This document shows positions 7,533 to 58,292 of a stretch of 64,000 nucleotides of DNA, one piece after another; the stretch's first letter is position 1, and every line of letters starts with the position of its first letter. Source of the DNA: Salinispira sp. (lineage in GTDB: Bacteria; Spirochaetota; Spirochaetia; DSM-27196; Salinispiraceae). The notes beneath the pieces are model-generated. The model was not told where the DNA came from and made no database searches. It was given only the letters and a program-made list of their open reading frames with translations. Location: positions 352,001-416,000 of the forward strand of contig OZ271918.1 in the NCBI GenBank assembly GCA_965602015.1, in the 5' to 3' direction. The position numbers were made by a program, and so were the translations under genes.

Positions 7533-7568
7533 TATGAAGTGCCCCCAAAACAGCTGATTTTCCCCTCC

Positions 7569-8702
7569 TCAGGCCACCGCATAATCGGGAAGATCGATCT
7601 TCAGCGCACTCACCGGTGTCTTCCAGATCCGATGCCAGGTCTTCCATTGGCTGATGTCCAGCACCAGATGATGAACGAATGCCCGCTGTGTAAACATCCG
7701 TTTTACCAACATCAGTACCCGCCTTCGGTCAAACCCCGCAACCTCACCATGGCTGATATCGTTACGTCCGTTTATCCGATACGGCTTGAGCAGGTTATGA
7801 TAGGCGATGTAGATCATCATCCGCTCCATGCTGTTGTTCACCGATTTTGACCACTGCACACTCTGGCGGACATGACAGGATTGATCCTTTCGTATCTCCC
7901 GATCCAGGTAATTCACCGGAAACAGGGGGTTCTCAGTGGTCCTCACTACCCTCGATGAGGTTCGGTGATGGATAACCCGCCCTGCATTTTCCAACGCCGC
8001 CCAGTCCCGGTGAGCGAACAGCTCACGGCGGTATTCGAGTTTTTCATCGCTCAAGAGATAGCATGGCTTCTTCGATGAATAAGCCCTCCACCTGGGAAGA
8101 ATGGTGTTTATCACATCCCGGAAAGATCGCGCAATTTGTCCCCCTGCAATAGGATACCGGCGATTGAGCTCATCGCGCCGGCGCTTTTGCGCGGGGGTCA
8201 TCCGCCCTTTGCGCCGCATCTGCGCATAGTCGCAGGCATAGACAACCTGGCTGTCGCAACCCACCGCGAGGGTGAAGTTGTTCGGCCAGTATTGGCTGTG
8301 CACAAAGCTTTCAAACCCATCAACGGCAATATCCTCATCGATTGTATGATCATTCAATAACTGGGCCATGGCAGCGATTGCCTGACGGGACAATCGGCTC
8401 AGCCGATTGAGAATGACCTTGTCGGTGACATAAAACTCCCGGGCAATGTCGCGGATGCCGGAAGCCGAGTTGATCGAAGAGAAGATGCGCCGGTAATCGA
8501 GGCGATGATGTGCGCGATAATCGAGGTGAAACGCGCTTTCGCAGAAGTATCGACGGCAATGCTTACAGCGATAGCGCTGTGAAGAACCGAGGCGGCGACA
8601 GTGATAGTGGCCGTTTCGGACAAACCAGCATCGGCTTGATTCTCTGTCGCGATGATGCTGAGAGCAGTCCGAGTACGGACAGAATCGGGGGTAAAATGCC
8701 AT
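7569..8702 (-). CDS. IS1/IS1595-like transposase (Zn ribbon, HTH, DDE-type RNase H fold)
   Basis: CPYSDC...QRYRCKHC Zn finger; SGIRDIAREFYVTDKVILNRL HTH; acidic motifs IAVDGFES, LLSDE, VNYLDREIR; YIAYHN; AGGAG RBS. Confidence 0.75.
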   Translation of the reverse strand: MAFYPRFCPYSDCSQHHRDRESSRCWFVRNGHYHCRRLGSSQRYRCKHCRRYFCESAFHLDYRAHHRLDYRRIFSSINSASGIRDIAREFYVTDKVILNRLSRLSRQAIAAMAQLLNDHTIDEDIAVDGFESFVHSQYWPNNFTLAVGCDSQVVYACDYAQMRRKGRMTPAQKRRRDELNRRYPIAGGQIARSFRDVINTILPRWRAYSSKKPCYLLSDEKLEYRRELFAHRDWAALENAGRVIHHRTSSRVVRTTENPLFPVNYLDREIRKDQSCHVRQSVQWSKSVNNSMERMMIYIAYHNLLKPYRINGRNDISHGEVAGFDRRRVLMLVKRMFTQRAFVHHLVLDISQWKTWHRIWKTPVSALKIDLPDYAVA

Positions 8703-8808
8703 GGTAATCTCCTATGAGCGGTAATCGTGTCATAGAAGACTACTGGCAAAAGAGTTATGTTGATTCGATCAGCTGTTTTGGGGGCATATCTGAAAGCGGT
8801 GCCTCCCC

Positions 8809-8970
8809 GCAAGAGTTTTCATTGTTCTATTACAAAAATTCTGCAAATCGGTTTTGTCCGAGTCATATCTCCGCCATCTACGTGGCATGAAAATGTCCTT
8901 CCAGGGGTGTCGCAATCACTTTGCACAGCCTCGTATTCGCGCTGTAGCCCCAAAAACGCGCTTACCCCTG
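8809..8970 (-). ncRNA. putative bridge RNA / seekRNA of the IS1111-type element (boundaries approximate)
   Basis: Minus-strand segments GTTTTTGGGGC (8957-8947), AAGTG (8921-8917), TTTCATGCCA (8892-8883) and AGATATGA (8870-8863) match the target and donor junction; closing stem 8964-8970/8902-8908. Confidence 0.75.
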
Positions 8971-10014
8971 TCTGGACAAACCCGCTAATGCAGGATCTTT
9001 GTAATGCTGTTCTTTCTGCAATATCCAAAATATTGCTTCTGCTAAGTGCCGTGCCACGGCGATTATTGCAACCTTATGATTACGTTTAGTACGAACTCTC
9101 TTGTAGAGTTTTACCGTATGTCGGTTCGCCCAATTTCTTTGATTAAGACAGGTTACATTAGCTGCTTCAGTAAGTGCCCACTTCAAGTATCGATTACATG
9201 CTTTCGATGTTCGACCATAATGGATTTTACCTCCGCTCGAGTGAACGCGCGGCGTTGTACCACAGTATGATGCAAAATGTTCAGCGGTCTTAAAGCGATG
9301 TATGTCTCCAATTTCATGCACAATGACTGCGCTGAGAATAAATCCGATCCCGGGAATGGATTTCACCAACTTCATTTCAGCATTTTCATCAAACGCTTCA
9401 TGCATTCGTTGTTCGCAGTCGGTGATAGATTGCTTAATAAACGCGAGATTATCGAGCTTGAGTTTCATCATGCTGCGGGTATGCTCGGGGAGTTTTGGCA
9501 TTACCTTCTTCATGGCTTCTGTACCTGCTTTTCCGAACAGATCGCTCACATCATTGAATCGAAACCCATATTTCTCGAACCCGGCATGAATTTGATTCTT
9601 TTCACGTATCAACTCCTGAACGAACTGCATCCGGGTTCGATAGAGTTCTCGTTTATCACGCAATTCTCCTGGTGGAATCCACACAGTAGGCAGTGTGCCT
9701 GCTTTTTGAAGTTTATTGAGACCTTCAGCATCGAGTTTGTCAGTTTTGTTAAACATGGCCATCATCAATTTTGACTTACCGGCATGAACCAGCAAGGGGT
9801 TCATGCCGGCCTCCTCAATCTCATCCACGATCCAGTACCAACTTCCGATCGTTTCAAGTGCGACTTCCTGTCCCGGCTCAAATTGTTGGAGGAAATCACG
9901 AATACACCCGTGAGAATGTTCTATGCGCTGTGAGGATTTCCTTCCATTTTCGTTCTCAATTGCAGCCACGGTATACCGTTTATGGCTGTCGAGGGATATA
10001 ATAGTATTACTCAT
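8962..10014 (-). CDS. IS110-family DEDD recombinase/transposase
   Basis: ISLDSHK, ALETIG, KTDKLDA RuvC-like DEDD; SIPGIG...FASYCGTTPRVHSSGGK C-terminal domain with the conserved Ser; GGAGG RBS. Confidence 0.96.
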   Translation of the reverse strand: MSNTIISLDSHKRYTVAAIENENGRKSSQRIEHSHGCIRDFLQQFEPGQEVALETIGSWYWIVDEIEEAGMNPLLVHAGKSKLMMAMFNKTDKLDAEGLNKLQKAGTLPTVWIPPGELRDKRELYRTRMQFVQELIREKNQIHAGFEKYGFRFNDVSDLFGKAGTEAMKKVMPKLPEHTRSMMKLKLDNLAFIKQSITDCEQRMHEAFDENAEMKLVKSIPGIGFILSAVIVHEIGDIHRFKTAEHFASYCGTTPRVHSSGGKIHYGRTSKACNRYLKWALTEAANVTCLNQRNWANRHTVKLYKRVRTKRNHKVAIIAVARHLAEAIFWILQKEQHYKDPALAGLSRQG

Positions 10015-10111
10015 TTGGTTGTCCTCCTCCGGTATTTAATATAGACCCTGACTGGCAGGATCTCGGGGGAGGCACCGCTTTCATACCATCACTTCAAAAA
10101 TAATCCCGGCG

Positions 10112-11374
10112 TCACTCAAAATCCGATATTATCACCCGCAAATCCTCATAATCGGGAACCCGGTAATCTTTAGCCTTCAGGCGGTGGTCAAAATAAGCCC
10201 TGATCTGCTGCCTTTGGTATTCCATAAAGACCTGAGGTTTCACCGACCCGATCATACCCAGCCATTGAACTACCGGGGCATACATATAGAGGGTGGTGAA
10301 CTGCTGATGGGTGATGTTTTCGATCTGATACAGCTCAACCGGTGATTCTAATGCGGAGACAAAGGGCATAAGGTAACCGTCATTGATTCCTCCCTCCCAC
10401 TGAGCGCTGCGAAGGAAAAGGGATGGCAGCTCATATTCCCCCGATTCCAAGTCTGGCCGCCCCACCGGCTCGACCCAGGCATCCAGCCCGACGAGGGCCT
10501 GGATCGACGGATAATCCGTTGATTGCTCACCGGCAGCCTCGAGTTCTCTGCGGTAGTCAATTGCCAGCCGCACCATGGCTCCCCCGCCTGTGGAATGCCC
10601 CAAGAGGCCGATTCGCGATAGATCCAGTTTTCCCGCGAGAGATATACGGTGCTGAAGTCCGCCCGGCTCAGACCCGGCTTGAATGTCCATCAGGTGATCG
10701 AGGATAAATCTGTTGTCATCGGCGAAGGTTTGAACCAGTCGGGAAGACAGGCGGGGAAAATCCGGGGAATTCTCTCGAAGGGGCAGGATATCATCCCCGG
10801 ATTGGATGATTCTGCCGTCTTCCAAAACCACCGCTGCCGCACCGTAGCTGTGGTCTGCTGCGGCAACCAGGTAGCCGTGGCTGGCCAGCTCTTCGGCCAC
10901 ATCGACGTGAAGTCCCCGGTATCCCTCCCAGCCGTGCGAAATGATGATAACCGGGAACCGTTCCCCTTCCGGGCTTATCGCCGGATGAGCTCCTTCAATG
11001 CTGTTGGCCGCCATAAATCCGGTGTGATTCCAGATAAAGCCCGGGAAGCCGTGGGTGTTTACAATTGCCCGGATCTGACGTCTGCCTTCGGGAATCCATC
11101 GCAGCATCCGACGGGTATTTCTCTGTTCATCCGTCGGATACCAAAGCTGAAGCCGAATAGTCCGGGGGCCGGGTGTATCACCGCGAATTGGGGCATAGGA
11201 CTCAGCGCGATCCGGATCGGAAATATCATAGACCACACTGCCCACGGCAAAGGGGCCCGTAGGCTCCGGGAGGTTTCTGGGGGGCATGGCAATGCCCCAC
11301 ATAAAAACCACTCCGATTGCCAGAATAATGACAATAGTAAACAGCAGGATAAAAAGAAGGCGTTTGGCGCTCAT
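10112..11374 (-). CDS. alpha/beta hydrolase, PAF-acetylhydrolase-like
   Basis: PTGPFAVG, QLWYP, IISHG, GHSTGG nucleophile elbow, LDAW; N-terminal TM. Confidence 0.82.
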   Translation of the reverse strand: MSAKRLLFILLFTIVIILAIGVVFMWGIAMPPRNLPEPTGPFAVGSVVYDISDPDRAESYAPIRGDTPGPRTIRLQLWYPTDEQRNTRRMLRWIPEGRRQIRAIVNTHGFPGFIWNHTGFMAANSIEGAHPAISPEGERFPVIIISHGWEGYRGLHVDVAEELASHGYLVAAADHSYGAAAVVLEDGRIIQSGDDILPLRENSPDFPRLSSRLVQTFADDNRFILDHLMDIQAGSEPGGLQHRISLAGKLDLSRIGLLGHSTGGGAMVRLAIDYRRELEAAGEQSTDYPSIQALVGLDAWVEPVGRPDLESGEYELPSLFLRSAQWEGGINDGYLMPFVSALESPVELYQIENITHQQFTTLYMYAPVVQWLGMIGSVKPQVFMEYQRQQIRAYFDHRLKAKDYRVPDYEDLRVIISDFE

Positions 11375-11449
11375 GCTTGTAATCTACTGTGAGGGCGGAT
11401 ATTCGACTATAATTAGCGTAAAAATCTCGGCCTGTGCTCGCACTCGCTT

Positions 11450-11998
11450 ATGGAGGTGACCGTGAAAAATCGTCTGTACTGCGTATTGGGAGACATTACC
11501 AGCCTATCGGTGGACGCCATTGTCAATGCGGCCAACCCCTCCTTACTGGGGGGCGGAGGTGTCGACGGGGCCATACATCGAGCCGCCGGCCCCAAGCTGC
11601 TCGAAGCCTGCCGTGAAGTTCGGCGCGAAAAGCATCCCGACGGTTTGCCCACCGGCCGGGCAGTGTTGACTCCGGGATTTAATCTACGTGCCCGGTATGT
11701 TATTCACTGCGTCGGCCCGGTCTACCCGGATCACAGTGCCGATGAGGCTGACTATCTTCTTACATCCGCCTACATAAACTGTCTGCACATTGCCGCCGAA
11801 AAGGGTGACATTCATTCCATTGCCTTTCCGGCAATCTCAACCGGGGTATATGGTTTTCCTCCCAAGCAGGCTGCCGAGCTGATTACCCGGGAGCTGAACC
11901 GCTGGGTAACAGAGAATGACCATCCGCAGTTCATAACACTCTGTCTTTTTTCCCCGGGAGATTACCGCGTCTGGGAAACCGCGTTATCTTCGCTTTGA
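11450..11998 (+). CDS. macro domain O-acetyl-ADP-ribose deacetylase (YmdB-like)
   Basis: GDIT, DAIVNAAN, GGGGVDGAIHRAAG, IAFPAISTGVYG. Confidence 0.93.
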   Translation: MEVTVKNRLYCVLGDITSLSVDAIVNAANPSLLGGGGVDGAIHRAAGPKLLEACREVRREKHPDGLPTGRAVLTPGFNLRARYVIHCVGPVYPDHSADEADYLLTSAYINCLHIAAEKGDIHSIAFPAISTGVYGFPPKQAAELITRELNRWVTENDHPQFITLCLFSPGDYRVWETALSSL

Positions 11999-13200: not shown

Positions 13201-13211
13201 TATTCGACTCG

Positions 13212-13235
13212 AGTGCCCCGAAAACAGCTGATTTT
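13212..13235 (+). repeat. solo copy of the REP/IR-like repeat
   Basis: AGTGCCCCGAAAACAGCTGATTTT, intergenic. Confidence 0.9.
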
Positions 13236-13309
13236 CCGGCGGTACACTGCTTTTAAGGACCCATCAAAATATCCCCTGGCAGCCCACAGGGTAAAAGGCT
13301 TTGGAGCTG

Positions 13310-13867
13310 TCACAAATCGTATCGATAGACAGGAGTACTTAAAGCTCCCTCGCTGATTCTTTTCTCCGTAGCAGTCCATCCGGGCATGGCAAATGCTACC
13401 GAGATTAACCGGGCATTATCCGGCTGGTCTTCTTCAAATCGGTGCCTCAGCCGGCGCATTGCGGGGCCTGATAGATAGGCGATATAGACTCTTTGCCCCT
13501 GCAGCCCTGATTCGAGAAAATTGCCTCTGACAAATACGACGTTTGGCCGGCAGGCGGAAGGGCGCAGTAGCCGCTCGACAATTTGTCCAGCGCGGCATGT
13601 AAGGTAGGGTAGTGCCCCGCCTTCGATGCCGAAGAAGTTACGGTCGGGAAAGCGGCTGGCGAGGTACCTCAGCATCCCGCCCCAGCCGGATCCCAAGTCA
13701 ATGACAACATAATCTGGGGGCAGACCTGCAATGATGTCCCCTACGGTCTTTCTTTCGTTGTGTGTAGTCGGGGATGGGGCAACGCCGAAGCGCATGGCCG
13801 ACCACAGCAGACTAAGGAGGATTTTGAGACCGATTGCGACAACTATCAGTATCAACAGGCTTGGCAT
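13310..13867 (-). CDS. class I SAM-dependent methyltransferase with N-terminal TM
   Basis: VIDLGSGWGG motif I; GVAPSPT; RGNFL; ISVAFAMPGW. Confidence 0.82.
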   Translation of the reverse strand: MPSLLILIVVAIGLKILLSLLWSAMRFGVAPSPTTHNERKTVGDIIAGLPPDYVVIDLGSGWGGMLRYLASRFPDRNFFGIEGGALPYLTCRAGQIVERLLRPSACRPNVVFVRGNFLESGLQGQRVYIAYLSGPAMRRLRHRFEEDQPDNARLISVAFAMPGWTATEKRISEGALSTPVYRYDL

Positions 13868-13892
13868 GGTCTTAGTTCATAAATTCGCCGTT

Positions 13893-14204: not shown

Positions 14205-14253
14205 CTGTTCCTCCTGGGAATCCCCGCGGGGGCATTGATGCGTATCGCTACAC

Positions 14254-14279
14254 AAAAAAAGCCCCGCATTTTGCGGGGC
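14254..14279 (-). terminator. Rho-independent terminator/attenuator in the leader of 13893-14204
   Basis: Minus strand GCCCCGCA-aaa-TGCGGGGC-TTTTTTT. Confidence 0.85.
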
Positions 14280-14299
14280 CTTGACGGTCTGGTTTATAA

Positions 14300-14380: not shown

Positions 14381-14389
14381 TAGAAGTGA

Positions 14390-14418
14390 ATGCTATTGAA
14401 GCCGGAGATTCTTGTCAA
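14390..14418 (-). promoter_or_regulatory. sigma70-type promoter
   Basis: TTGACA (14418-14413) - 17 nt - TAGCAT (14395-14390). Confidence 0.75.
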
Positions 14419-17809: not shown

Positions 17810-17907
17810 GCTGAAGAATATACCTTCTGGTCTGTCAGGGTTCAAGATTGATTGCAACGGCCTGCCCTTCCGGCGATGGAGAAAACTGTTCTGCGTTTTT
17901 TAGATAA

Positions 17908-18051
17908 TGCCCCGAAAACAGCTGATTTAAACCCTCTAACATTTATATCAGACAGGATTTAACCGCTGTCCACCGCATGCAGAGGTAAATACTATGGTTA
18001 ATCATTCTCGTACCGTGTTTTAGCACTCGCAAATCAGCTGTTTTCGGGGCA
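17908..18051. mobile_element. 144-bp MITE/REPIN-like doublet of the repeat
   Basis: 21-bp perfect IR TGCCCCGAAAACAGCTGATTT at 17908-17928 and 18031-18051 around a 102-bp non-coding core. Confidence 0.85.
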
Positions 18052-18053
18052 GT

Positions 18054-18350
18054 TCACCGTTTTTGCAGCCAGCTGACAAATCTCCTGATTTCCGGTTCGG
18101 CTTCAAGGGCATCCAGGGTGTTTAAACGCCTGCCAAGTTCTTTTTCGCTGAAGTGCCGATGAATGTGTTCATGGCAGTCCTTGCACAGGTCTATGCCTCT
18201 TGTGCGCATATCCATCGGGTCAAAATTCTTGCGGAACCATTTATTCCTGTGGCATGTCCGGGGAATGAGATGGTGAAAGGAAAGAGGTTTGACCCTGCCG
18301 CATAATCTGCAGGACTCTCCGGTTTTTTCTGGACGGGTATTCACTGGCAT
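18054..18350 (-). CDS. small HNH-like zinc-binding protein (YisB-like)
   Basis: CRLCGR...FHHLIP...LCKDCHEHIH...LNTLDAL. Confidence 0.75.
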   Translation of the reverse strand: MPVNTRPEKTGESCRLCGRVKPLSFHHLIPRTCHRNKWFRKNFDPMDMRTRGIDLCKDCHEHIHRHFSEKELGRRLNTLDALEAEPEIRRFVSWLQKR

Positions 18351-18460
18351 GCTTAAGAAAGTACCGCCGAGGTCCCTTCCGCGGCAAATACCGGTGCGGA
18401 GCATTCTCTCTTGCCATGAGCGCCGGCGGGAGCGAGAATGAGGTATGAGGAGACGCAGAA

Positions 18461-18973
18461 ATGGAAAACAGCGGTGAAATGATTTCACGGGGGGATATCC
18501 TCGAAGATATTCGCACACTTTTTTTGGAGGCCGCAGTGGGCCCTGAGGATCCCAGGGAAACCTGGTTCACCGATAATGAAGAGGGATCGGGCATTCTCGG
18601 ATCGGTGGGTCAGCTCAGCGCGAAAGCGGCATTTTCCGAAAAGGTTCCCGGCCTGGACAGCATTGCAGCTCATGTTCAGCATGTGAGCTTTTTCGTAAAT
18701 CTGGCTGTTCGGGCGTATCGGGGTGATAATGCTTATGAAGGGGCTGACTGGACCGGCAGCTGGAAAATCCGTGAAAAAACACCTTCGGAGTGGCAGCGCA
18801 TCCTCAATGAACTTGAATCGGCGGTGAACAACATCAGCGCAGAACTAAAGCGCGGAATTGACCTCGATGTTTTCCCCATACGGCGGGGCAGCATGGCTCT
18901 GGTGGCCCACTGCGCATGGCATCTCGGAGCCATCCGGCAGCTGCTGGTGCTTGTCAATTCTCCCGGGCAGTAA
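18461..18973 (+). CDS. DinB/YfiT-like protein
   Basis: SIAAHVQHV...ADWTGSW...AHCAWHLGAIRQ His pattern. Confidence 0.75.
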   Translation: MENSGEMISRGDILEDIRTLFLEAAVGPEDPRETWFTDNEEGSGILGSVGQLSAKAAFSEKVPGLDSIAAHVQHVSFFVNLAVRAYRGDNAYEGADWTGSWKIREKTPSEWQRILNELESAVNNISAELKRGIDLDVFPIRRGSMALVAHCAWHLGAIRQLLVLVNSPGQ

Positions 18974-44327: not shown

Positions 44328-47300
44328 GTGCGAGAGATACAAGATTTCGACAATATTATGATCAAGCTCGCGTCGCCGGACCAGGTCCGGGCGTGGAGCT
44401 ATGGTGAAGTAAAAAAGCCCGAAACCATCAACTACCGGACCCTCCGCCCGGAAAAAGACGGTCTGTTCTGCGAGCGCATTTTTGGTACAACCAAGGAATG
44501 GGAGTGCTATTGCGGCAAGTTCAAAAGCATTCGCTACAAGGGCGTGATCTGCGACCGCTGCGGTGTTGAAGTGACCCACCCGAAGGTCCGCCGGGAGCGA
44601 ATGGGCCACATCGAGTTGGCCAGTCCGGTAAGCCACATCTGGTATTACCGCTCGGTGCCCAGCCGCATGGGCCTTCTTCTCGACCTCACGGTAGCCGCAC
44701 TGCGCTCCATCCTCTATTACGAAAAATATATCGTTATAGAATCCGGCGATACCGACCTAAAAAAAATGGATCTGCTCACCGAAGAAGAGTACGCCGAGGC
44801 GAAAGAGCGCTACGGCATGAGCTTTTCTGCGGGAATCGGCGCCGAGGCCATTCGCAACCTGCTTGAAACCCTCGATCTGGACGGCCTGAGTGCAGAACTC
44901 CGGGCGACCATGATCGAAAAAGGTGAGAAGGCCGATAAGCGCCTGTTGAAACGGATTGAAATCGTTGAAAACTTCCGGGACAGCAAAAACGAAGCCGCCT
45001 GGATGATCCTCGATGTCATTCCCGTCATTCCCCCCGAGCTGCGTCCCATGGTTCAGCTGGACGGTGGACGCTTCGCCACCAGCGACCTGAACGATCTTTA
45101 CCGCCGTGTTATCAACCGGAACAACCGGCTCAAGCGGCTTATGAACCTCAATGCACCCGACATCATCATCCGTAATGAAAAGCGGATGCTCCAGGAAGCT
45201 GTCGACGCCCTCTTCGACAACAGCAAGAAGAAGCGGGTTGTAAAAGGCGCCAGCAACCGTCCCCTCAAGTCTCTGTCTGATATGCTCAAGGGTAAGCAGG
45301 GCCGTTTCCGTCAAAACCTTCTCGGAAGGCGGGTCGACTATTCCGGCCGTTCGGTAATCGTCGTCGGTCCGAATCTCAAGCTTCACCAGTGCGGACTGCC
45401 CACGAAAATGGCTCTTGAACTGTACAAGCCCTTTATTATGAAGAAACTCGTCGAAAAAGACGTGGTATACAATATCAAACGGGCTAAAACCCTCGTTGAA
45501 CAGGAAACCCCCGAGGTGTGGGCGGTTCTCGATGAGGTTGTCAAAGAGCATCCTGTGCTTCTCAACCGTGCGCCGACCCTCCACCGCCTGGGTATCCAGG
45601 CATTCGAGCCGGTGCTCGTAGACTCAAAAGCCATCAAGCTTCACCCCCTGGTTTGTCATGCCTACAACGCCGACTTCGACGGCGACCAGATGGCGGTTCA
45701 CGTGCCCCTTACCCAGGCTGCTCAGATCGAGTGCTGGACCCTTATGCTCTCCGCCCGAAACCTTCTCAACCCGGCGAATGGAAAGCCTATCGTCTTTCCG
45801 TCCCAGGATATGGTTCTCGGCATCAACTACATGACCCGCCACCAGGAGAACGGCAGAGGCCACGGCAAGCGCTATTCGGGTTTCGACGAAGTTATCTACG
45901 CCATCGAGAATATGGACCTAGGCTACCAGACTCTTATTAAGGTGCCGGTTCACAAGGCGCCGCATAACGGCGAGCTGGTTGAAACCACCGCGGGCCGCCT
46001 GATTCTCAATGACTCCATGCCCGAGGAAATTGAGTACGTAAACTACGCAATGGGAGACAAGGAGCTGCGGGCCTTAATTGCCCGGGTCTATTCCAAGCAC
46101 GGTCCTTACCTCACCGTTCAGATGCTCGACTCAATCAAGGATATGGGTTTTCGCTATGCGACCCTCTTCGGCGCAACCATCGGCGTCGATGACATCATCA
46201 TTCCAGAAGTAAAGCCCGAAATGATCGACAGGGCGAATACCGATGTCATCAACATCCAGAATCAGTACCTCCAGGGTCACATCACCAATGAAGAGCGCTA
46301 CAACCGGGTCGTCGAAGTATGGTCAAAGACCAACGAAGAATTGACCAATGAAATGATGAACAAGCTGCAGAACGACCGGGAGGGATTTAATCCGGTCTAC
46401 ATGATGGCGAACTCCGGAGCCCGGGGTAGCCGTTCTCAGATCCGTCAGCTGGCCGGTATGCGCGGTCTTATGGCGAAGCCCAATGGCGACATTATTGAAC
46501 TGCCCATTCGATCGAACTTCAAGGAAGGTCTCTCGATTATCGAGTTCTTTATCTCCACCAACGGTGCCCGTAAGGGTCTGGCGGACACGGCGCTTAAGAC
46601 CGCCGACGCCGGATACCTCACCCGCCGACTCGTGGATATCGCCCAGGACGTGGTGGTTAACGAAGAAGACTGCGGAACCATCAACGGTATCGAGTACAGC
46701 GCCATCAAGGACGGCGAGGAGATCGTCGAAACCCTGGCCGAGCGTATCATCGGGCGTTTCACCATTGAGCGGGTGAAGCATCCCATCAGCGGTGAGATAC
46801 TCGTCGATGTAAATGAAGAAATTACCGAAGAAATCGCCGAAGCCATTGAGGAAGCGGGTATAGAACAGGTGCGAATCCGAACGGTACTCACCTGCGAGTC
46901 TAAGCACGGAGTATGTAAGAAGTGCTACGGCCGCAACCTCGCCACCAACCGCACGGTTGAAATCGGCGAGGCCGTCGGAATCATCGCTGCCCAGAGTATC
47001 GGTCAGCCCGGAACCCAGCTGACCATGCGTACCTTCCACATCGGGGGCGCGGCAACCAAGACCAGCGAGGAAAACCGGACCTTCCTCCATTATCCGGTGA
47101 TGATAAACAGCATCCACGGAAACACGGTAACCCTGAAAAACGGCGATCGGCTGTTCACCCGAAAAGGTTTTATTATGGCCAGCAAGGTGCTTGAGACCAT
47201 CGAGCTCGGGAAGAACACCAAACTCCTGGTTGAGGAGGGCGATAAAATCGTCAAGGGCCAAGACATAGTGCAAAACGGCAAAACCGCCGAGCAGGCCAAG

Positions 47301-48575
47301 GAAAACGCCTATGCGGTTATTGTCGATAAGAAGCTGTATCTCGTCGCTCAGGAACAAAAAATTGAAATTAGAAACGGCGCGGACCTCTTGGTCAAGGAAG
47401 GGGAGATAGTTCCCGCAGAGGAATCCATTGCGACCTTCGACCCCTTCTCCGAGCCAATCCTGGCGGAATTCGACGGTACGGTGTTTTTCGAAGACATCGA
47501 CAAGTCCACTCTGAAGGAAGAGGTAAACGAAGACACGGGGAATATCGAAAAGAAGATTACCGAGCTTACCACCGAGAGTCTCCAGCCTCGCATCATCATA
47601 AAAGATGACGCCGGCGAAGAACTTGCCAGCTACTATCTGCCCGGTGGTTCATACCTCAATGTGGAGAACGGCGACAAGGTGGAAGCCGGACGTTCACTTG
47701 CTAAAATCCTGAAGGAATCGGTGAAAACCCGGGATATTACCGGTGGTCTTCCCCGGGTCGGAGAACTCTTCGAAGCCCGGAAGCCCAAGGTGCCCGCGGT
47801 TCTGGCGAAGGTCAGCGGAACGGTGTTCTTCGAGGGAATCGTGAAGTCCAAGCGGGTAATTATGGTTGAGGACAGCTTCGGCCAGCGCCTCAAGCACCTG
47901 GTGCCCATGGGCCGCCACCTGCTCATCCGCGAAGGCGACCTGGTTGAAGCCGGCGAACCGATTTGTGACGGTGCGGTTGACCCCCATGACATCCTGCAGA
48001 TTCTTGGCGAAAACGCACTCCAGCGCTTTTTGGTGAATGAGGTTCAGGAAGTCTATCGCCTCCAGGGTGTAGATATCAACGACAAGCACATTGGCGTAAT
48101 CATTCGTCAGATGATGCGGAAGGTCGAAATCATCAAGGTCGGGGACACCAATTTTATCTACGGTCAGCAGGTCGATAAATACAAGTTCTCTGAAGAAAAC
48201 CGAAAGGTCGAAAAAGAGGGTGGCCAGCCCGCCGTGGCCCGTCCGCTCCTGTTGGGAATTACCCGGGCGAGCTTGAACATCGACAGCTTTATTTCTGCGG
48301 CGTCCTTCCAGGAAACCACCAGAGTCCTAACCAATGCGGCTATCGCCGGGTCGGTCGACGGTCTGCGAGGTCTTAAGGAAAACGTGATTATCGGTCACCT
48401 GATTCCCGCTGGTACCGGTATGCGGGGGTACAATAAAATCAAGCTCTTCGATGAAAACCGCTCCGACCTCGACGCCCACGTACAGCAGATCCTGGAGATC
48501 CGCGAGAAGGAAAAGGCGGCAATCGCCGCCGCCGGCGGAGAAGAGGATCAGGGCCCCGGAGGGGACCAGGCCTAG
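44328..48575 (+). CDS. rpoC: RNA polymerase beta-prime subunit
   Basis: NADFDGDQM active site; GTG start. Confidence 0.99.
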
Positions 48576-48643: not shown

Positions 48644-48691
48644 CAGTGCCCCCAAAACAGCTGATTTAAATCAGCTGTTTTGGGGGCACTG
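48644..48691. repeat. perfect 48-bp palindrome made of two abutting copies of the repeat
   Basis: CAGTGCCCCCAAAACAGCTGATTT|AAATCAGCTGTTTTGGGGGCACTG. Confidence 0.95.
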
Positions 48692-50368: not shown

Positions 50369-50378
50369 GGGGAATACA

Positions 50379-50933: not shown

Positions 50934-53900
50934 ATACCTGTTGCGTACCCTGCAATTGATCCAATCGTCGCGAAAGAATCAGGATATGACCGTCCAGCCG
51001 GTCCAGGAGCCCGGTGAGCTCATCCCTGATTTCAGGGGAGAAGGTCTTCTCGTCCCGAATATGAGCCTTTGACAAGTTTTCAATTTCGGAGGCGCAGCTG
51101 GAAATATCAAAGGCCATAAGATTGAGGGCGCCGCCTTTGACGCTGTGACTGAGCCGGTGAAGTTCTGTAGGATTATCGGACTCGAGGCTTTCCCGCATCT
51201 GGGTGTTGCTTTCCCGAGCAGCATGTACAAATCCCTGCACCAATGAGAGCACCATATCCCGGTTTTGCTCATGCTCTGATAGAAGGGCCTGGAAGTCGAT
51301 AACCGGATCAGTGTGGTCTAGTGGAATGGTTTCATCCTTCGCGGCTTCGGGTAAGACTTCCCCGTCGCCCTCCAGACAGCGCTTAATCGCCTGTCGGAGC
51401 TGGTTCTGCCGCAGCGGTTTGTGTATAACATCATTCATCCCGGCTGCCAGGCATTCAGTTCGGCTTTCATCTACCACGTCTGCGGTCAGCCCGAGAACCG
51501 GAATATCCGGGTTTATGCCCCGGATTATCCGGGTTGCTTCGAGGCCGTCCATACCGGGCATATGAAGATCCATTATGACCAGTGAATAGCTGCCTTCCCT
51601 GATTTTCTCAATGGCTTCCTCTCCGCTGGCCACCAGGTCTATTTCGGCGCTGCTGTCGGACAGGAGAGCCTTTATTACATCCTGATTTGGCTTGTAGTCT
51701 TCAACCAGCAGAATGCGGCTTCCTGAAAGTAACTCCTCGTGGCGGTCTTCATCAGAGTAATCCTGGTCATCGGCCGGGGCGATCGGGGGGCGCAGCGGAA
51801 GTAAAAAGCTGAAGGTGCTGCCCTTGCCCGGGACCGACTTGATTGATATCGACTCTCCGCCCAGCAATTTTACCAGGTGACTGGCGATGGCCATACCCAA
51901 ACCGCTTCCGCCGTGTTCGCGGCTCAGCGATTTATTGACCTGCTCAAAGCTTTGAAACACCATTCTCTGTTTCTCTTCGGGTATGCCGATGCCGCTGTCC
52001 CTGACGCTGAATTCAAGATGCGGAGAACCGTCAAGCCCCTCCGCATGCCCGGCGTACAGTCCAATGTATCCTACGGTGGTAAATTTCAGGGCATTGCTCA
52101 GAAGATTGTCCAAAATCCGCCAAAGGGCGAGCTTGTCACTGACGATGGTGTCCGGAAGCCGGCTATCTATTTCGGTGGTGAATACCAGTCCTTTGTCGGC
52201 GGCGTGTTGACGATATGATGCCGTGAGTTCCTGAATGAAGGGGCGTAGGGTGAAGCTGCCAAGCTTGGCCTCCTCTTTGCCCGCCTCGATTTTTGAGATG
52301 TCCAGAATCTGGTTGATGAGGGATAAGAGCTTGCTCGATTCATGATAAATGGTCTTGGAGTATTGCACTGTCAGTTCCGGACTCTTGTTCTTCCTGATCA
52401 ATTCAGAGAACCCGATTATGCTGTTCAACGGGGTCCGCAGATCGTGGCTGATATTCGCCAAAAAGCGGCTTTTGGCGGCGTGAGCCTCCTCGGCATTTTT
52501 CCGGGCGTTGCTCAAGGCCTGAGTGCGCTCGAGCACCTTACGTTCAAGGACCTTGTTTATCCGGCTCTCCTCTTCGAGTTTTTGCTGATTGAGCTGCCAA
52601 CGGATGCGGAAGAAATTGAAGACGGTAAAGAGGAAAAGTGTGACAAAAATGATTTGCAGGGCAATGGCCGGCGGGCTGAAATACCAGGGCGGCTGAATTG
52701 TGAAGGTAAATTCCGCAGTCTCGGGACTCCAGATTCCGTCGTTGTTGGCACCCCGAACTTCAAACGTATATCGTCCGGGCCGAAGGTTGGTAAAAATTGC
52801 CTGATTTCTTCGCTCTGGTTCGCTCCACTGATTATCTAGGCCGAGCAGGCGGTATTGAAAGCTGTTTCTTTTTGGCGCGGTGAAGTCCAGGGCGGCAAAG
52901 CGGAAACTGAGGAAATTCTGCTGGAAGTTTAAAAGCACTTCCCGTCCTGTGAAAGCGTCGATTTCCTCGCCGGAAATCTCCACTGAGGTGATTACTGTGT
53001 TTGGCTGATGAAAATTGCTGATATAATCAATGCTGTCGATCCGGTGAATGCCCGCCTGAGCGCTGATATACAACCTGCCGTCCCGGGTTTTTATCGCCGC
53101 CTGATTCATTTCCCAGCTCAAAAGTCCATCGTTTTCATCAATTATGACAAAGTCCTTGATAGACGGATCGAGAATAACCAGGCCCCTGGATGTGCTGATC
53201 CACAGCCTGTTTTGGTCGTCTTCAACGATGGCAGCGATGTAATTCGATGGTAGACCGTTTTCCGTCGTGAAATGGGTGAATCCGCGGCTCTCCCGGTCAA
53301 ACAGGTTGAGGCCGCCGCTGTTGGTCCCTATCCAGAGCTGGTTGAGACTGTCCTCGAAAATGACGTTGATACGGTTGCCGGATATGGAGTTTCTGTTTTG
53401 CGGATCGTACCTAAAGTGTTCGAACTTACCGTCATTCCAGAGATTCAAGCCGCCGTTTGTTCCGAACCAGATTGCGCCCTGGCTGTCCTGAAAGATTTTT
53501 GACACCAGATTATTGCTGAGGCTCCCGGTATCGCCCTCCCGATTTTCGAAGTACAGAAAGTCCTCAAAACTCGCGTCTGTCAGGAATACCCCGTTGTTAT
53601 AAGTACCGAACCAATAATTGCCTTGGTCATCTTGCAGCATCGAGCTCATTATCCGTTCGGCAAAGGGTTCTCCCATGCGGATGAATCGATCATTTTCGTA
53701 GTCGTATCGATTCAGACCCGATTGAGTGAGGATCCACAACTGATTATCCAGGTCCTGATAAATGTACCGAATGAAATTATCGTCGAGGCTTGCGTTGTTG
53801 TCAGGTTCATTGTCGTAGCGCTGTACCAGCTCATTTTCCCGGTCTATGAGATTCAGACCCGAGGAATGGGTGCCGAGCCACAGGTTTCCGAGATGGTCTT

Positions 53901-55014
53901 CGTACATTGCGGTGTAGTTGCCCGGTGAAACATTCTGAGGTCCTTCGCCCGGTTTATACACAAAAAAGCTGTTTCTCTTTGGATCGAACTTGTTGATGCC
54001 CCCGCCCCTGGTTCCGACCCACAGAATGCCTCCCGAATCCTCGAGCAGCGAATATACCAGATCATTGCTGAGACTGCTTTCATCCTCCGGTTCATTGAGG
54101 TAGCGGTGAAAATTCCCGGTATCCGGATCCATCAGGAAGAGGCCGCCGGTCCAGCTGGCCACCCATAATCTGTCCCGGGAATCGAACATCAGTTGATAAA
54201 CCCCTTCAACAGGGAGCTGCCAGCTGGTGAACTCGCCGCTTTCCGCATCATATCGGGATATGTAACCCTCCCACATTCCGGCGAAAATCCGGCCTCGGCT
54301 GTCCTCGGTAATGGACATGACGTAGGTGCCCGGAAGTCCTGAGCTGTTGTCTGGTTCTTGAAGGATATTGCGGAAACCCTCCTGGCCCTCATCCCAGATA
54401 CTTATCCCCCGATAATGGCCAATCCACACCCTGCCTTCCCGGTCTTCAAAAATAGCTCTGATGGTTCGGTCTCCCAGGCTGGCGGGATCGTCCGGATCGG
54501 GCTGGAACCGAGTGAAGTTGTCCCCGCCGTCCAGGCTGAGATTTAATCCCCGGGCGGTTCCCACCCACAGGCGACGCCGGCTGTCACGGAGAATAGAAAT
54601 GATTTGAGGATCGCTGATACTGTTTTCCACATCAGGATCGCTTATGTAATTCCTGAATGTTTCTGTTTCGGGGTTTAATCGACTGAGACTCCCATAGGTT
54701 CCTATCCAAATATGGCCGTCATCATCGAGGTGCATTGTCTGGATTTGCGAATGGGGTAGAGAGCTCTCGCTGAACGGGAGATATATGAACTCCCGGAACT
54801 CATATCCGTCATACCGGCTCAAACCTGAGACCGTACCAAACCATAAATATCCCTGGTTGTCCTGGACGATTGCCGAGACATTCGAGTTTATCAGTCCGTC
54901 CTCAATGCCCAGCCGCTCAAAGCGGATGTCAGGACCCGGTTCTTCCTGGGCGATGAGATTGTGAGTTGTGCCGAGTGATGCGAAAATAAGCAGCGCAAGA
55001 ATTGCGAGTTTCAT
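50932..55014 (-). CDS. hybrid sensor histidine kinase (beta-propeller Reg_prop repeats, Y_Y_Y, HisKA, HATPase, REC, Hpt)
   Basis: Repeated D..G.LW.GT..GL blades; FTNLRPGRYTFEV; ISHDLRTPLN; NALKFT, DSGIG; MDLHMP; HSVKG. Confidence 0.95.
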   Translation of the reverse strand: MKLAILALLIFASLGTTHNLIAQEEPGPDIRFERLGIEDGLINSNVSAIVQDNQGYLWFGTVSGLSRYDGYEFREFIYLPFSESSLPHSQIQTMHLDDDGHIWIGTYGSLSRLNPETETFRNYISDPDVENSISDPQIISILRDSRRRLWVGTARGLNLSLDGGDNFTRFQPDPDDPASLGDRTIRAIFEDREGRVWIGHYRGISIWDEGQEGFRNILQEPDNSSGLPGTYVMSITEDSRGRIFAGMWEGYISRYDAESGEFTSWQLPVEGVYQLMFDSRDRLWVASWTGGLFLMDPDTGNFHRYLNEPEDESSLSNDLVYSLLEDSGGILWVGTRGGGINKFDPKRNSFFVYKPGEGPQNVSPGNYTAMYEDHLGNLWLGTHSSGLNLIDRENELVQRYDNEPDNNASLDDNFIRYIYQDLDNQLWILTQSGLNRYDYENDRFIRMGEPFAERIMSSMLQDDQGNYWFGTYNNGVFLTDASFEDFLYFENREGDTGSLSNNLVSKIFQDSQGAIWFGTNGGLNLWNDGKFEHFRYDPQNRNSISGNRINVIFEDSLNQLWIGTNSGGLNLFDRESRGFTHFTTENGLPSNYIAAIVEDDQNRLWISTSRGLVILDPSIKDFVIIDENDGLLSWEMNQAAIKTRDGRLYISAQAGIHRIDSIDYISNFHQPNTVITSVEISGEEIDAFTGREVLLNFQQNFLSFRFAALDFTAPKRNSFQYRLLGLDNQWSEPERRNQAIFTNLRPGRYTFEVRGANNDGIWSPETAEFTFTIQPPWYFSPPAIALQIIFVTLFLFTVFNFFRIRWQLNQQKLEEESRINKVLERKVLERTQALSNARKNAEEAHAAKSRFLANISHDLRTPLNSIIGFSELIRKNKSPELTVQYSKTIYHESSKLLSLINQILDISKIEAGKEEAKLGSFTLRPFIQELTASYRQHAADKGLVFTTEIDSRLPDTIVSDKLALWRILDNLLSNALKFTTVGYIGLYAGHAEGLDGSPHLEFSVRDSGIGIPEEKQRMVFQSFEQVNKSLSREHGGSGLGMAIASHLVKLLGGESISIKSVPGKGSTFSFLLPLRPPIAPADDQDYSDEDRHEELLSGSRILLVEDYKPNQDVIKALLSDSSAEIDLVASGEEAIEKIREGSYSLVIMDLHMPGMDGLEATRIIRGINPDIPVLGLTADVVDESRTECLAAGMNDVIHKPLRQNQLRQAIKRCLEGDGEVLPEAAKDETIPLDHTDPVIDFQALLSEHEQNRDMVLSLVQGFVHAARESNTQMRESLESDNPTELHRLSHSVKGGALNLMAFDISSCASEIENLSKAHIRDEKTFSPEIRDELTGLLDRLDGHILILSRRLDQLQGTQQV

Positions 55015-55066
55015 GTGGTAATTTCTCCAGGAATTCATCTGGTTACAATTGTAAGAAAAATACTGG

Positions 55067-56755
55067 TCATCTTCCAGTTTCGGTGCAGTGTGCACTCATC
55101 CCCGAGGTATCGAGAACGAGGGCTTGAAGGGGTTCAAGTTTCACCGCCCCGGTGACTGTGCTCCTCAGCGGATCGGCGCACAGGCTGTCTGCGAGTATTT
55201 CTGCCTCCGTGTTTGCCACCTCCGTGTTTACCGCCTCCGTATTTGACAGTAATAGGCGTCGGTTTTGTGAGGTGAAATTGAGAAGCACGAGAAGACTGCG
55301 GTCTTTCCATATTCGTTTGTATGACAATACGCCTCTGAAAACCCGCAGATCGCGTATGTCTCCCCGGTTGAGTTGCGGAAGGCTTCTGCGAAGTGATATC
55401 AGCTTCCGATACCAGGACAGGAGAGATGCTCCGTCAGCCTTCTGGGCATCGACGTCGCGCTCGGTGGTATCGGGGTTTTGGGGCAGCCAGGACTTATCGC
55501 CGGCGGTGAATCCGCCGGAAGCCGACCACTGCATGGGCGTTCTCGACCTATCTCTGCCCGGATGAAGGGGCCAATACCGCAAGCCGAGGGGGTCCATCAT
55601 ATCTTTCCGCCGGATTTTTCCGTCTACCATACCGATTTCTTCTCCGTAGTAGAGAAACGCTGTTCCCCGTTGGGTCAGAAGCAGGGCGGCTAACAGTCGG
55701 GCCTTGCTTTCATTTCCACCGCATAGCCGGGTCATTGCCCGGCTCTGATCGTGATTGCTCAGGACGTGGCAGGGCCAGCGATTTTCCCCGCAGACTGCAT
55801 ACCAGCGCGAGAGGATGCGGCGGAAGGACTCGACAGAGAACTTCACATACATGGGAGAAAAGTCAAAGGCCAGGTGGAGCTCGTCTGTTCCGCTGCCCTG
55901 GTACGACGCGCTTGAAGCGGGGTCGGGCAGGCCCTCGTTGGGATAGATTTCCCCGACGAGCATGGTCTCCGGGTATTTGTCGTGTAGCATTCGCAGACGC
56001 TTGAGAATCTCATGGGTTTCAGGACGATTTCGATCGTAGAGATGCAGCTGCTGATCGTGGAGTCTCGGCGGTGCCTTTCTCAGCCGATAGGGATTCGATC
56101 GGAGTTTATCATCTTTGACAATGTAGTTGATCACGTCGAGCCGAAACCCGTCTACACCCCGTTCAAGCCAAAATTTTGCCTGGGAGAACATCGCCGATTC
56201 CACATCCGTATTACGCCAGTTGAGGTCGGGCTGTTCGGCGAGGAACAGATGGAGATAGTATTCCCGGCTGTTCGGGTCCCAGGTCCATGCGCTCCCGCCG
56301 AATGCAGCCCTCCAGTTATTCGGCGGCCGCCTTATCCCCAGATGGCGGATTCCGGGATGCCACATATACCAGTTTCGCTTCTCTGATTTTTTTGACGAGG
56401 CGGAATCGGTAAACCAGGGATGTGCATTGCTGGTGTGGTTCATTACGAGATCGAGAATGATTCGGATATTGCGGCGGTGTGATTCGCTGACAAGCTCATC
56501 GAAGTCTGTTAGGGAGCCGAAAATTGGGTGGATGTTTTTATAGTCGGACACATCATAGCCAAAGTCCTTCATGGGCGATGGGAAAATCGGCGAAAGCCAT
56601 ATTCCGTCGACTCCCAAATACTCGAGGTACTCGATCCTGTTGATTATTCCCCGCAAATCGCCTATGCCGTCTTCGTCTGAGTCGGAAAAACTGCGGGGGT
56701 AAATCTGATAGATACAGCCGTGCTTCCACCAGAGGTATCCATCGCGATTATGCAT
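55067..56755 (-). CDS. GH13 alpha-glucosidase
   Basis: YQIYPRSF, DLVMNH, GFRLDV, LVGE, SNHD, RTPMQW. Confidence 0.94.
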   Translation of the reverse strand: MHNRDGYLWWKHGCIYQIYPRSFSDSDEDGIGDLRGIINRIEYLEYLGVDGIWLSPIFPSPMKDFGYDVSDYKNIHPIFGSLTDFDELVSESHRRNIRIILDLVMNHTSNAHPWFTDSASSKKSEKRNWYMWHPGIRHLGIRRPPNNWRAAFGGSAWTWDPNSREYYLHLFLAEQPDLNWRNTDVESAMFSQAKFWLERGVDGFRLDVINYIVKDDKLRSNPYRLRKAPPRLHDQQLHLYDRNRPETHEILKRLRMLHDKYPETMLVGEIYPNEGLPDPASSASYQGSGTDELHLAFDFSPMYVKFSVESFRRILSRWYAVCGENRWPCHVLSNHDQSRAMTRLCGGNESKARLLAALLLTQRGTAFLYYGEEIGMVDGKIRRKDMMDPLGLRYWPLHPGRDRSRTPMQWSASGGFTAGDKSWLPQNPDTTERDVDAQKADGASLLSWYRKLISLRRSLPQLNRGDIRDLRVFRGVLSYKRIWKDRSLLVLLNFTSQNRRLLLSNTEAVNTEVANTEAEILADSLCADPLRSTVTGAVKLEPLQALVLDTSGMSAHCTETGR

Positions 56756-58133
56756 CGGGAGCGGCCTCTGCGGCTGCCCGGTACTCGGCGAGTTCCCGGC
56801 TTATGTCATCCTGAGGGTAACGAAGAAAGATAAAAAAGCCCGCAAGGACAAAAACCGAGGCCACGGGTCCCGTGAGTATGACTCCCAGGGGTTGCGACGC
56901 ATCCTTACCGAAAAATGCGAACAGGCTCGCGGTGATTGCCAGGGCGATCCCGTAGTTGACCTTCATAAACAGGCCTTGAGTTCCGAAAAACATGGCCTCA
57001 CGGTTTTTTCCGTTTCGAAAACCGTCCAGCTCGCTCAGGTCGGAAACCGCGGCGTTGGGAATTACCAGTAAGACCGCCACGGGGAAACCGATAAGACCCA
57101 TTTGGATTATAGCCGCAAGGGCAGCCGAGGATCCTGTCAGGGGAATAATCGGGGTCATGGCCATCAGTATTGAAAAACTGAGCATGCCCGCCAGCATAAG
57201 CTGCTTGTTGCTGAAGCGCTTGGCCAAACCCGGCAGAAGAATAAATACGAGAAAGGCGACGCCGAAGAGGGCCGCCATCAGAACAGTCTGGAACTCCGCA
57301 GGCCGGTTGAGCAATACTACCGGGTAATATGCAATGACGGCCCGGATCATGTTAAACGAAAACCAATACAGGATGGTTCCTATCATATATATGATAAAGC
57401 GCCGATTTTTTACGGTAAGCAAAACCGATTCCGCCAATCCGACTCCAGCGGGTCTGGCCCGTGAATACCGCTTTTCATTGACCGGCAATCCGCTGCTAAG
57501 CATTGAGATCAGGGCGACGGCTCCGAGAACCGCCATAGTTATCTGGAATGCCTCACGCCGCTCAATACCCGAGTTTTGAAGACCATCCCAGAGCATTGGG
57601 GACCCAATGAGGACGATAATCGCTCCGACAAGACTAAAAACCGCTTGAACTACGGTCAGGGAAATCCGTTCTCCGGTATTTCTACTCACCTCGGGGATCA
57701 GCGCAAGGTAGGGAGTCATGTAATAGGTATAAAAGAAAAAGTAGAGCCCGAGCATGAGAGCGGTGTACCAGGCGTTGACCGATGCCACTGCAGCTATTGG
57801 CTGAAAGTACAGAAGGATACCCGTGAGTGCGAAGGGCAGGGCTCCGGTGACAATAAAAAACTTGCGCCGACCCATCTTGTTGCTCGCATTATCGCTCCAC
57901 CAGGCAATGAGAGGGTCCGCCAGAGCATCTATCACCCGTCCGAACAGATTTATCAGCCCTACCAGAGTAATACCCAGCAATAAGGGACGGTTATCCACCA
58001 GCTCGGGCATTCCGGTTTCCGCCGGCGGCAGGAGGAAAAACAGAAGGTACACTCCGTAGATATTGTCCATGATGGAGAAACCCATGTTGCCGTTTGCGTA
58101 TACAATCCGTTTCCACCGGGGAAAATGATCCAT
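56748..58133 (-). CDS. MFS_2 / GPH-family sugar:cation symporter
   Basis: GRVIDALADPLIAWWSD...MGRRK; PYLALIPE; REAMFFG. Confidence 0.88.
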   Translation of the reverse strand: MDHFPRWKRIVYANGNMGFSIMDNIYGVYLLFFLLPPAETGMPELVDNRPLLLGITLVGLINLFGRVIDALADPLIAWWSDNASNKMGRRKFFIVTGALPFALTGILLYFQPIAAVASVNAWYTALMLGLYFFFYTYYMTPYLALIPEVSRNTGERISLTVVQAVFSLVGAIIVLIGSPMLWDGLQNSGIERREAFQITMAVLGAVALISMLSSGLPVNEKRYSRARPAGVGLAESVLLTVKNRRFIIYMIGTILYWFSFNMIRAVIAYYPVVLLNRPAEFQTVLMAALFGVAFLVFILLPGLAKRFSNKQLMLAGMLSFSILMAMTPIIPLTGSSAALAAIIQMGLIGFPVAVLLVIPNAAVSDLSELDGFRNGKNREAMFFGTQGLFMKVNYGIALAITASLFAFFGKDASQPLGVILTGPVASVFVLAGFFIFLRYPQDDISRELAEYRAAAEAAPDA

Positions 58134-58262
58134 TGTTCCTCCTTCCGCTTTTTTTCCGAAGCCGGCCGCTGTGACTGACATCGCTGCGTTGTGGTTTGAG
58201 CTATGCTTCATTGTAACCTGAGTTTTACCGCGGGGGTACAAAATGGTGGGTAGGCTTACCCG

Positions 58263-58292
58263 GTGCCCCGAAAACAGCTGATTTCGGGGAAC
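58263..58292. repeat. collapsed hairpin form of the repeat, centred on CAGCTG
   Basis: GTGCCCCGAAAA-CAGCTG-ATTTCGGGGAAC, two mismatches from a perfect palindrome. Confidence 0.88.

Follow-up and report, generated by a model that had tools for sequence, protein, structure and literature searches.

A dispersed 19-bp motif in a Salinispira genome very probably marks the ends of a multicopy, distantly IS1-like insertion sequence and its miniature derivatives

What is the 19-mer TGCCCCSAAAACAGCTGAT, which recurs in direct and inverted orientation along a 64-kb stretch of a Salinispira sp. genome (hereafter the window, G000:C1:352001-416000), and which enzyme is responsible for its spread? A preliminary description had left two accounts standing, either a family of miniature inverted-repeat transposable elements (MITEs) belonging to an IS1-like insertion sequence (IS), or a REPtron-like system in which repetitive extragenic palindromic (REP) repeats are driven by a DDE-type enzyme and not by a REP-associated tyrosine transposase (RAYT). 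Using the complete context of the genome (G000, one 3.87-Mb contig, 53.8% G+C, 99.7% complete), the motif is very probably identified as the conserved inner core of a ~24-bp terminal inverted repeat (TIR) belonging to a multicopy ~1.25-kb IS1-like IS and its MITE family.

The motif itself is real, as had been proposed, with eight exact matches in the window compared to a mean of 0.00 in 100 dinucleotide-preserving shuffles. The matches start at 7540(+), 8768(-), 13214(+), 17908(+), 18033(-), 48647(+), 48670(-), and 58264(+); six of these starts had been placed correctly, while the inverted copies at 18033 and 48670 had been put at 18031 and 48668, the spacer of the doublet measures 106 bp instead of 102 bp, and the two 19-mers of the supposed zero-spacer form are separated by a 4-bp centre and belong to a perfect 48-bp palindrome. 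Genome-wide, there are 132 matches with ≤3 mismatches, of which 119 are exact, 4 have a single mismatch, 3 have two, and 6 have three. The 126 copies with ≤2 mismatches, somewhat fewer than the hundreds extrapolated from the window, occupy 81 loci and fall into discrete spacing classes: 11 pairs at ~1247 bp, 30 pairs at 133–145 bp, 4 pairs at 42–47 bp, and 36 unpaired copies. One of the unpaired copies belongs to a twelfth 1247-bp element, the opposite end of which has 3 mismatches, giving a final tally of 12 full IS (1246–1248 bp), 30 MITEs (~143 bp), 4 mini-palindromes (42–47 bp), and 35 solo ends. Each of these classes is represented in the window, where the elements and their parts are as follows, with C and G variants referring to the base at position 7 of the 19-mer.

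7534..8786, minus strand: full IS copy (19-mer-to-19-mer span 7540-8786, 1247 bp; left outer tip 7534-7539)
7540..7558, plus strand: left TIR core, C variant, by motif match
7569..8702, minus strand: transposase P0001, 377 aa, with a CxxC...CxxC zinc finger and helix-turn-helix (HTH), then an RNase-H-like domain
8768..8786, minus strand: right TIR core, C variant, by motif match
7527..7533, no strand: left copy of the direct repeat AAATAAT (target-site duplication), by sequence reading
10092-10097, no strand: right outer tip of the IS after displacement, CTTCAA, with the right AAATAAT copy immediately beyond it at 10098-10104
8787..10091, minus strand: IS1111-type (IS110-family) element, 1305 bp, with its transposase open reading frame (ORF) at 8962-10014
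13214..13258, plus strand: solo end S_365214, G variant, a truncated MITE with likeness to MITEs over ~45 nt
17901..18057, no strand: MITE with G variants at both ends (19-mer-to-19-mer span 17908-18051, 144 bp)
17894-17900 and 18058-18064, no strand: direct repeat CGTTTTT flanking the MITE, by flank comparison
48644..48691, no strand: mini element with C variants (19-mers at 48647-48665 and 48670-48688), a perfect 48-bp palindrome centred on TTTAAA
58264..58291, plus strand: solo end, G variant, the 19-mer overlapping a short hairpin CCCCGAAA...TTTCGGGG

The window IS is one of the 12 genomic copies, which are 95.4–100% identical to it, and its right outer tip is displaced to 10092-10097 due to the IS1111-like insertion. 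Pairwise identity among the 12 copies is 95.1–99.0%, and all 12 retain an intact, single 377-aa ORF. Over the 66 pairs of ORFs, synonymous divergence clearly exceeds non-synonymous divergence (pS = 0.113, pN = 0.012, pN/pS = 0.10), as expected of lineages that have remained functional; on these sequence comparisons, the element bears the signature of an active multicopy IS. The preliminary description had distinguished a single-copy, syntenic transposase gene from a multicopy one, and the count of 12 places it with the latter. A thirteenth, divergent transposase match (G000:C1:2757339-2758217; 37% identity, residues 79-374 only) represents either a remnant or a second lineage within the transposase family.

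The transposase is poorly represented in curated collections. No Pfam family was matched by the 377-aa protein, even at E-values up to 10 and including PF03400 (DDE_Tnp_IS1), though a weak match to the NCBIfam IS1 model recurs in 34 of 35 family members. BLASTP aligned P0001 to InsA of Escherichia coli K-12 IS1A (E = 4e-6, 29% identity, 79 residues, 28-106), and profile–profile comparison of the 35-member family to IS1 InsAB' with hhalign gave E = 1.8e-4 (probability 48.8%, 196 columns), for which the InsAB' alignment was shallow, consisting of 8 near-identical enterobacterial sequences. This alignment is collinear, placing D219 on the Asp of IS1 'MTDGW' and 'NYLDREIRK...RQSVQWSKSV' on 'ERHNLNLR...RKSLSFSKSV'. 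Among the residues invariant across the 35 aligned family members are two CxxC pairs, D128, D219, N264, D267, and R271. In an AlphaFold2 model (mean predicted local distance difference test [pLDDT], 87.6), the core follows the RNase-H-like order beta1-3/alpha/beta4/alpha/beta5/alpha, the first strand carrying D128 and the fourth ending at D219. Foldseek matched the model to retroviral integrases, the ISCth4 transposase, and Mos1 (E = 3e-5 to 5e-4, probability ~1) with low template modelling scores (TM-scores, 0.21–0.30), which result from the domains being placed differently; a sequence search against solved structures returned only chance-level zinc-finger matches (E = 0.39 or worse). Overall, the model and the alignments lead to the conclusion that P0001 is probably a DDE-type transposase, distantly IS1-like and below the curated IS1 thresholds. 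Of 128 homologues found, none has a transposase Pfam domain, all of those named by organism are from spirochaetes, and the source names listed for them are mostly 'hypothetical protein', with many homologues sitting alone on contigs of 1.2–1.6 kb. A search of 7400-10300 against Rfam found nothing relevant (one chance snoRNA match, E = 0.98).

The gene-less copies share the ends of the IS. All but one of the 30 MITEs are 141–145 bp in length (the remaining one is 133 bp), and 58 of their 60 ends match the IS 19-mer exactly when C and G at position 7 are both counted as matches, with the 19-mer continuing to ...GATTTAAA at one end and AAATC... at the opposite one. In 23 of 29 MITEs the position-7 variants of the two ends are complementary, and in the other 6 they are mixed. 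At 75% identity the MITEs form 19 clusters (sizes 5, 4, 3, 2, and 2, plus 14 singletons). A BLAST search with the 30 interiors returned 84 high-scoring segment pairs (HSPs) and no locus outside the known elements, revealing no hidden decayed MITEs, which indicates that the invariant ends are not an artefact of discovering elements by their ends. RNAalifold, applied to 29 MITEs on both strands, recovered no conserved structure beyond the TIR stem, and there was likewise no conserved ORF. The minis consist of two ends fused at a TTTAAA centre. Among the solos, the possibility of MITEs with one decayed end was discarded, as the best partner within 260 bp has 3–9 mismatches, similar to random background (with the exception of self-overlap at a CAGCTG centre). 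Likeness of the solos to MITEs or to the left end of the IS instead runs for 21–98 nt and then ends, and on these alignments they are truncated remnants, two from the IS left end and about nine with 42–98 nt of MITE interior.

Evidence for insertion comes from the flanks, where AT-rich direct repeats of 7–10 bp are found 4–7 nt outside the 19-mer, an offset that defines the 19-mer as the inner core of a ~24-bp TIR. Six of the 46 paired elements were set aside as one flank is an IS1111-like element; in the 40 tested, a perfect direct repeat of at least 7 bp at offsets 3–7 was present in 6, compared to a mean of 0.43 in shuffled flank pairings (0/2000 reached 6), and perfect repeats of at least 8 bp were present in 2 (0.15 expected, P = 0.006). 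The perfect repeats comprise one of 9 bp (TTTAGCTTG, at MITE 429441), one of 8 bp (AAATCCTA, at IS 3764332), and four of 7 bp, with five more of 8–10 bp that have one mismatch. Outside the 19-mer, which begins with TG, the tips of the 119 exact ends have C at -1 in 30, G at -4 in 62, G or T at -5 in 43 and 46, respectively, and T at -7 in 81. About half of these ends fit the form GGnnnTG, an end motif attributed to IS1 in an excerpt of PMC6807381, with the IS copies mostly TGAAG-TG or GAAAG-TG. Element flanks are 71% A+T compared to 51% in crude intergenic DNA. The exact ends could not be taken from an empty site, as in the sole filled/empty pair (G001 L040 and G000 524404-524465) the intergenic DNA is too diverged to place the junction; relatives are only 65–80% identical in genes.

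Gene context was assessed using crude ORF calls (greedy longest ORFs of at least 100 aa), by which 66 of 70 non-IS copies genome-wide are intergenic. Of the gaps that hold these 66 copies, 20 are convergent, 31 tandem, and 15 divergent (genome gaps, 359, 1165, and 458, respectively), a mild excess at gene 3′ ends that is a tendency and not a rule, and one that an AT-rich target preference near terminators would produce. The position previously described as intergenic and 3′ of a gene thus holds for every copy in the window, all of which lie between ORFs and downstream of some stop codon, but genome-wide only as a tendency, given the 15 copies in divergent gaps; in the window, those at 13214, 48647, and 58264 could as well be described as upstream of the next gene. 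The left AAATAAT duplication of the IS overlaps the TAA stop codon of the CN-hydrolase ORF upstream (6528-7532), which is left intact. The mini element lies just past a T-rich stretch, 71 nt beyond the stop of ORF 44328-48575 (+), which encodes 1415 aa, and the solo at 58264 is 16 nt from the stop of ORF 58299-59195(-). Adjacent to the MITE, the stop codon of a 154-aa ORF (18054-18518, minus strand) is 2 nt from the MITE end; this ORF has no Pfam family and a sub-threshold NCBIfam match to the HNH nuclease-like HlpB (E = 6.6e-13, 49 bits, cut-off 130).

Transposases of this family are widespread among relatives, and in the related genomes searched the 19-mer accompanies only its cognate IS. 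Of 81 genomes sampled across the order, 46 (counting G000) yielded the family, which is multicopy in complete genomes, with 12 matches in G002 and 14 in G014. At 8 of 9 related loci that were fetched, the ORF is bounded by inverted repeats of its own (e.g., AGTGCTCCCAAAATTGTG... and ACTGTCACGAACCCTGAT...), with none found around the ORF at the ninth locus, L015. The congener G001 possesses a 1247-bp IS (61% amino acid identity) with ends that are the G variant of the 19-mer. With ≤1 mismatch, the 19-mer occurs in 2 of 21 related genomes, with 123 copies in G000 and 63 in G001, including doublets of ~144 bp, and is absent from the other 19, including the same-genus G002, where the homologues are ~33% identical. 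An exact scan of one genome from each of 185,579 species recovered 29 stretches, 20 of which were in one Salinispira metagenome-assembled genome, and the remaining 9 were isolated hits, one in each of nine unrelated records, close to what chance would give by our arithmetic. For all 8 G001 TIR loci with a recognisable orthologous flank in G000, the nearest G000 TIR is 3 to 184 kb away, so that the two species have none of these insertion sites in common, and at one locus the alignment shows a filled site in G001 opposite an empty one in G000. None of the papers listed by a literature search on Salinispira and transposases or insertion sequences mentions Salinispira, and a search for ISMhu11, an IS1-family subgroup that might include this lineage, found no paper.

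These results are consistent with a mechanism in which the N-terminal zinc-finger/HTH domain, similar to InsA, would bind the 19-mer core, and the RNase-H-like domain (D128, D219, D267/E269) would cut ~5 nt further out, with the ends then joined to AT-rich targets to leave duplications of 7–10 bp. Copies lacking the gene would be non-autonomous derivatives using the same ends in trans, with the solo ends as truncated MITE or IS remnants. We infer the DNA binding, the position of cleavage, and the mobilisation in trans, and the resident enzyme is assumed to mobilise the G-type elements. The AT-rich intergenic positions, often past stop codons or terminators, would follow from an AT-rich target preference combined with selection against insertions into genes. 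All 12 IS ORFs are intact at a pS of 0.11, resembling the MITEs in having no dead copies, for which the simplest account is selection along transposing lineages and rapid loss of dead copies, and this would also leave the ends invariant.

Several observations weigh against an IS1-like element with mobile derivatives. P0001 scores 35 bits against NCBIfam NF033558 'IS1 family transposase' (cut-off 100; residues 40-139), and BLASTP gave no match between P0001 and IS1A InsB. Perfect direct repeats are present in only 6 of 40 elements and in none of the other 34, with about five more having a single mismatch, such that most target duplications have decayed, been scrambled, or were never made; the distance between repeat and 19-mer varies between 4 and 7 nt, so that the exact ends are not fixed, and the outer tip is semi-conserved (A at -2 in 98 and G at -1 in 87 of 119 exact copies). 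MITE interiors are very diverse (pairwise identity median, 43%; range, 22–97%), and an origin by internal deletion of the IS was rejected, as the interiors have no likeness to the IS past the first bases after the 19-mer. Within clusters, the TIR cores (36 positions per MITE, position 7 excluded) differ at 0/756 positions, compared to 13.6% of 1996 interior positions, and the solos, unable to transpose, also keep near-perfect 19-mers. Lastly, all 12 IS copies have C at position 7 of both ends, while 11 MITEs and most solos have G. The invariance of the cores favours an account in which the elements are IS-derived and their TIR copies are additionally held intact by a host process, such as a hairpin terminator or mRNA-stabilising stem, protein binding, or gene conversion among the ~126 copies, and so do the lack of decayed MITE loci among the 84 interior HSPs, the perfect TIRs of elements for which most direct repeats are decayed or missing, the matching position-7 variants of 23 of 29 MITEs, and the minis and solos that are often a few nucleotides past stop codons. 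We consider this account unlikely, as the IS genes are equally free of fossils and lineage selection with fast loss can explain both, 15 of the 66 intergenic copies are in divergent, promoter-side gaps, no site is held in common with the congener, and no structure is conserved past the TIR stem. It is similarly improbable that the cores are kept perfect in place by a process other than transposition, whether concerted evolution through short-tract gene conversion among the copies or a use made by the host of the hairpin or of transposase-domain binding, for instance at gene 3′ ends; if they are, the family would stand midway between selfish MITEs and domesticated, REP-like repeats, with a DDE enzyme running it. 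The position-7 difference raises a separate possibility, which we regard as tentative though less doubtful than maintenance by the host, that the G-variant MITEs and solos are now-immobile relics of a second, G-type IS, like that of G001, which has been lost from G000. All 24 resident IS ends are C-derived (21 exact, 3 mutated but still C at position 7), the G001 IS has G-variant ends, and most G001 copies are G variants, but 6 of 29 MITEs combine a C end with a G end, GG and CC members occur together in one MITE subfamily that lacks mixed ones, the G-variant copies are as perfect as the C-variant copies, and a single-base difference may not matter to the enzyme.

The other account offered at the outset, that these are host-maintained REP/REPIN-type repeats spread by a domesticated DDE enzyme instead of by a selfish IS, is rejected as highly improbable. 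Its appeal lies in the dispersed, intergenic, and partly palindromic copies that occur as singlets and doublets, in the near-invariance of the 19-mer even in immobile solos (119 of 126 exact), and in the absence of a RAYT from G000, where PF01797 had 0 matches while the same control search was positive in 6 of 14 reference genomes; the earlier statement that the enzyme is not a RAYT is therefore upheld. However, the enzyme gene is present in 12 repeat-bounded copies with the pN/pS of an active IS, elements are flanked by direct repeats, the insertion sites are unshared with the congener at 8 of 8 loci, and the motif is restricted to the two genomes with the cognate IS, by which the co-occurrence check set out in the preliminary description comes out for an IS with cognate MITEs. 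In other genomes, the related transposases are likewise multicopy and are bounded by different inverted repeats of their own, the repeats around homologues having been a further check named in that description. An IS1-like element with a MITE family, the first of the preliminary alternatives, is supported by 12 intact motif-bounded IS, 30 MITEs with the same ends, the duplications, the weak likeness to IS1, and the DDE fold. A candidate for a REP system with a DDE enzyme is removed as a result, and an ordinary, well-resolved case of an IS and its MITEs takes its place, by which a spirochaete IS lineage outside of Pfam now has defined ends, MITEs, and remnants. This will help to annotate such genomes and to explain fragmented assemblies, and the fact that such invariant ends enclose very diverse interiors is of wider interest.

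The element that displaced the right tip of the window IS targets the same ends across the genome. Its transposase has the domains PF01548 (DEDD_Tnp_IS110) and PF02371 (Transposase_20), and the element possesses subterminal inverted repeats of 18 bp. The longer of its non-coding regions (175 nt) lies downstream of the gene and the shorter (77 nt) upstream, with no Rfam match. Of its 9 genomic copies, 7 are inserted exactly between the ...GGGGCA of the 19-mer and the CTnnn tip, at IS, MITE, or solo ends and in C and G variants alike, and the eighth adjoins a partial TIR, TTTTCGGGGCA. Two copies ~250 bp apart with identical distal flanks (G000:C1:3399660-3402573) suggest a tandem duplication of ~1.56 kb next to a MITE. 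An excerpt of PMC11187229 describes IS1111 relatives as targeting transposon ends, attC sites, or REPs via a seekRNA in the downstream non-coding region. In the corresponding region of the window copy, GTTTTTGGGGC (8947-8957, transposase strand) is one mismatch from the target GTTTTGGGGGC, with the mismatch falling on the polymorphic position. By our estimate ~0.05 such 11-nt near-matches are expected in 175 nt, and the segment is a candidate guide, put forward as a lead and not as a result. In its DEDD transposase, subterminal repeats, downstream non-coding region, and fixed target, the element resembles the IS1111 family members IS4321/IS5075, found at the TIRs of the Tn21 family, and differs in that the target here is the ends of an IS1-like IS/MITE family in a spirochaete. 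It would represent a natural example of an IS1111-type element, RNA-guided by analogy to its family, for which the ends of a different transposon family serve as landing sites present in many copies.

Compared to known systems, the 1.25-kb element shares several features with the IS1 family. The zinc finger and HTH of P0001 are homologous to those of InsA, the TIR is ~23–24 bp with an inner end of CTGAT like the right end of IS1A (the IS1A left end being TTGAT), direct repeats of ~8–9 bp flank the element in a minority of copies, and the tip consensus fits GGnnnTG loosely, with about half of the ends conforming. In the classical IS1 subgroup, a programmed -1 frameshift links two ORFs, and the fused product of IS1 has 232 aa, whereas here there is one 377-aa ORF without a frameshift in an element of 1.25 kb as opposed to 768 bp. 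The spacing between the second and third acidic residues is ~48–50 compared to 25 in IS1, and the catalytic domain lacks a match to PF03400, to InsB by BLASTP, or to NF033558 at its cut-off. As in other bacterial MITEs, the derivatives are short, non-coding, and intergenic, carry the ends of a resident IS, have direct repeats in some copies, and outnumber the IS (30 to 12), but their interiors are unlike the IS and diverse (median identity, 43%) while the length is held at 141–145 bp in 29 of 30, and they are accompanied by 42–47-bp minis and 35 solo ends. REP/REPIN families share the dispersed intergenic singlets and inverted doublets, in numbers comparable to small REP families, and are distinguished from the Salinispira repeats by the absence here of a Y1_Tnp gene, by a DDE-fold enzyme that is multicopy, by the presence of direct repeats, and by insertion sites that are not conserved between species.

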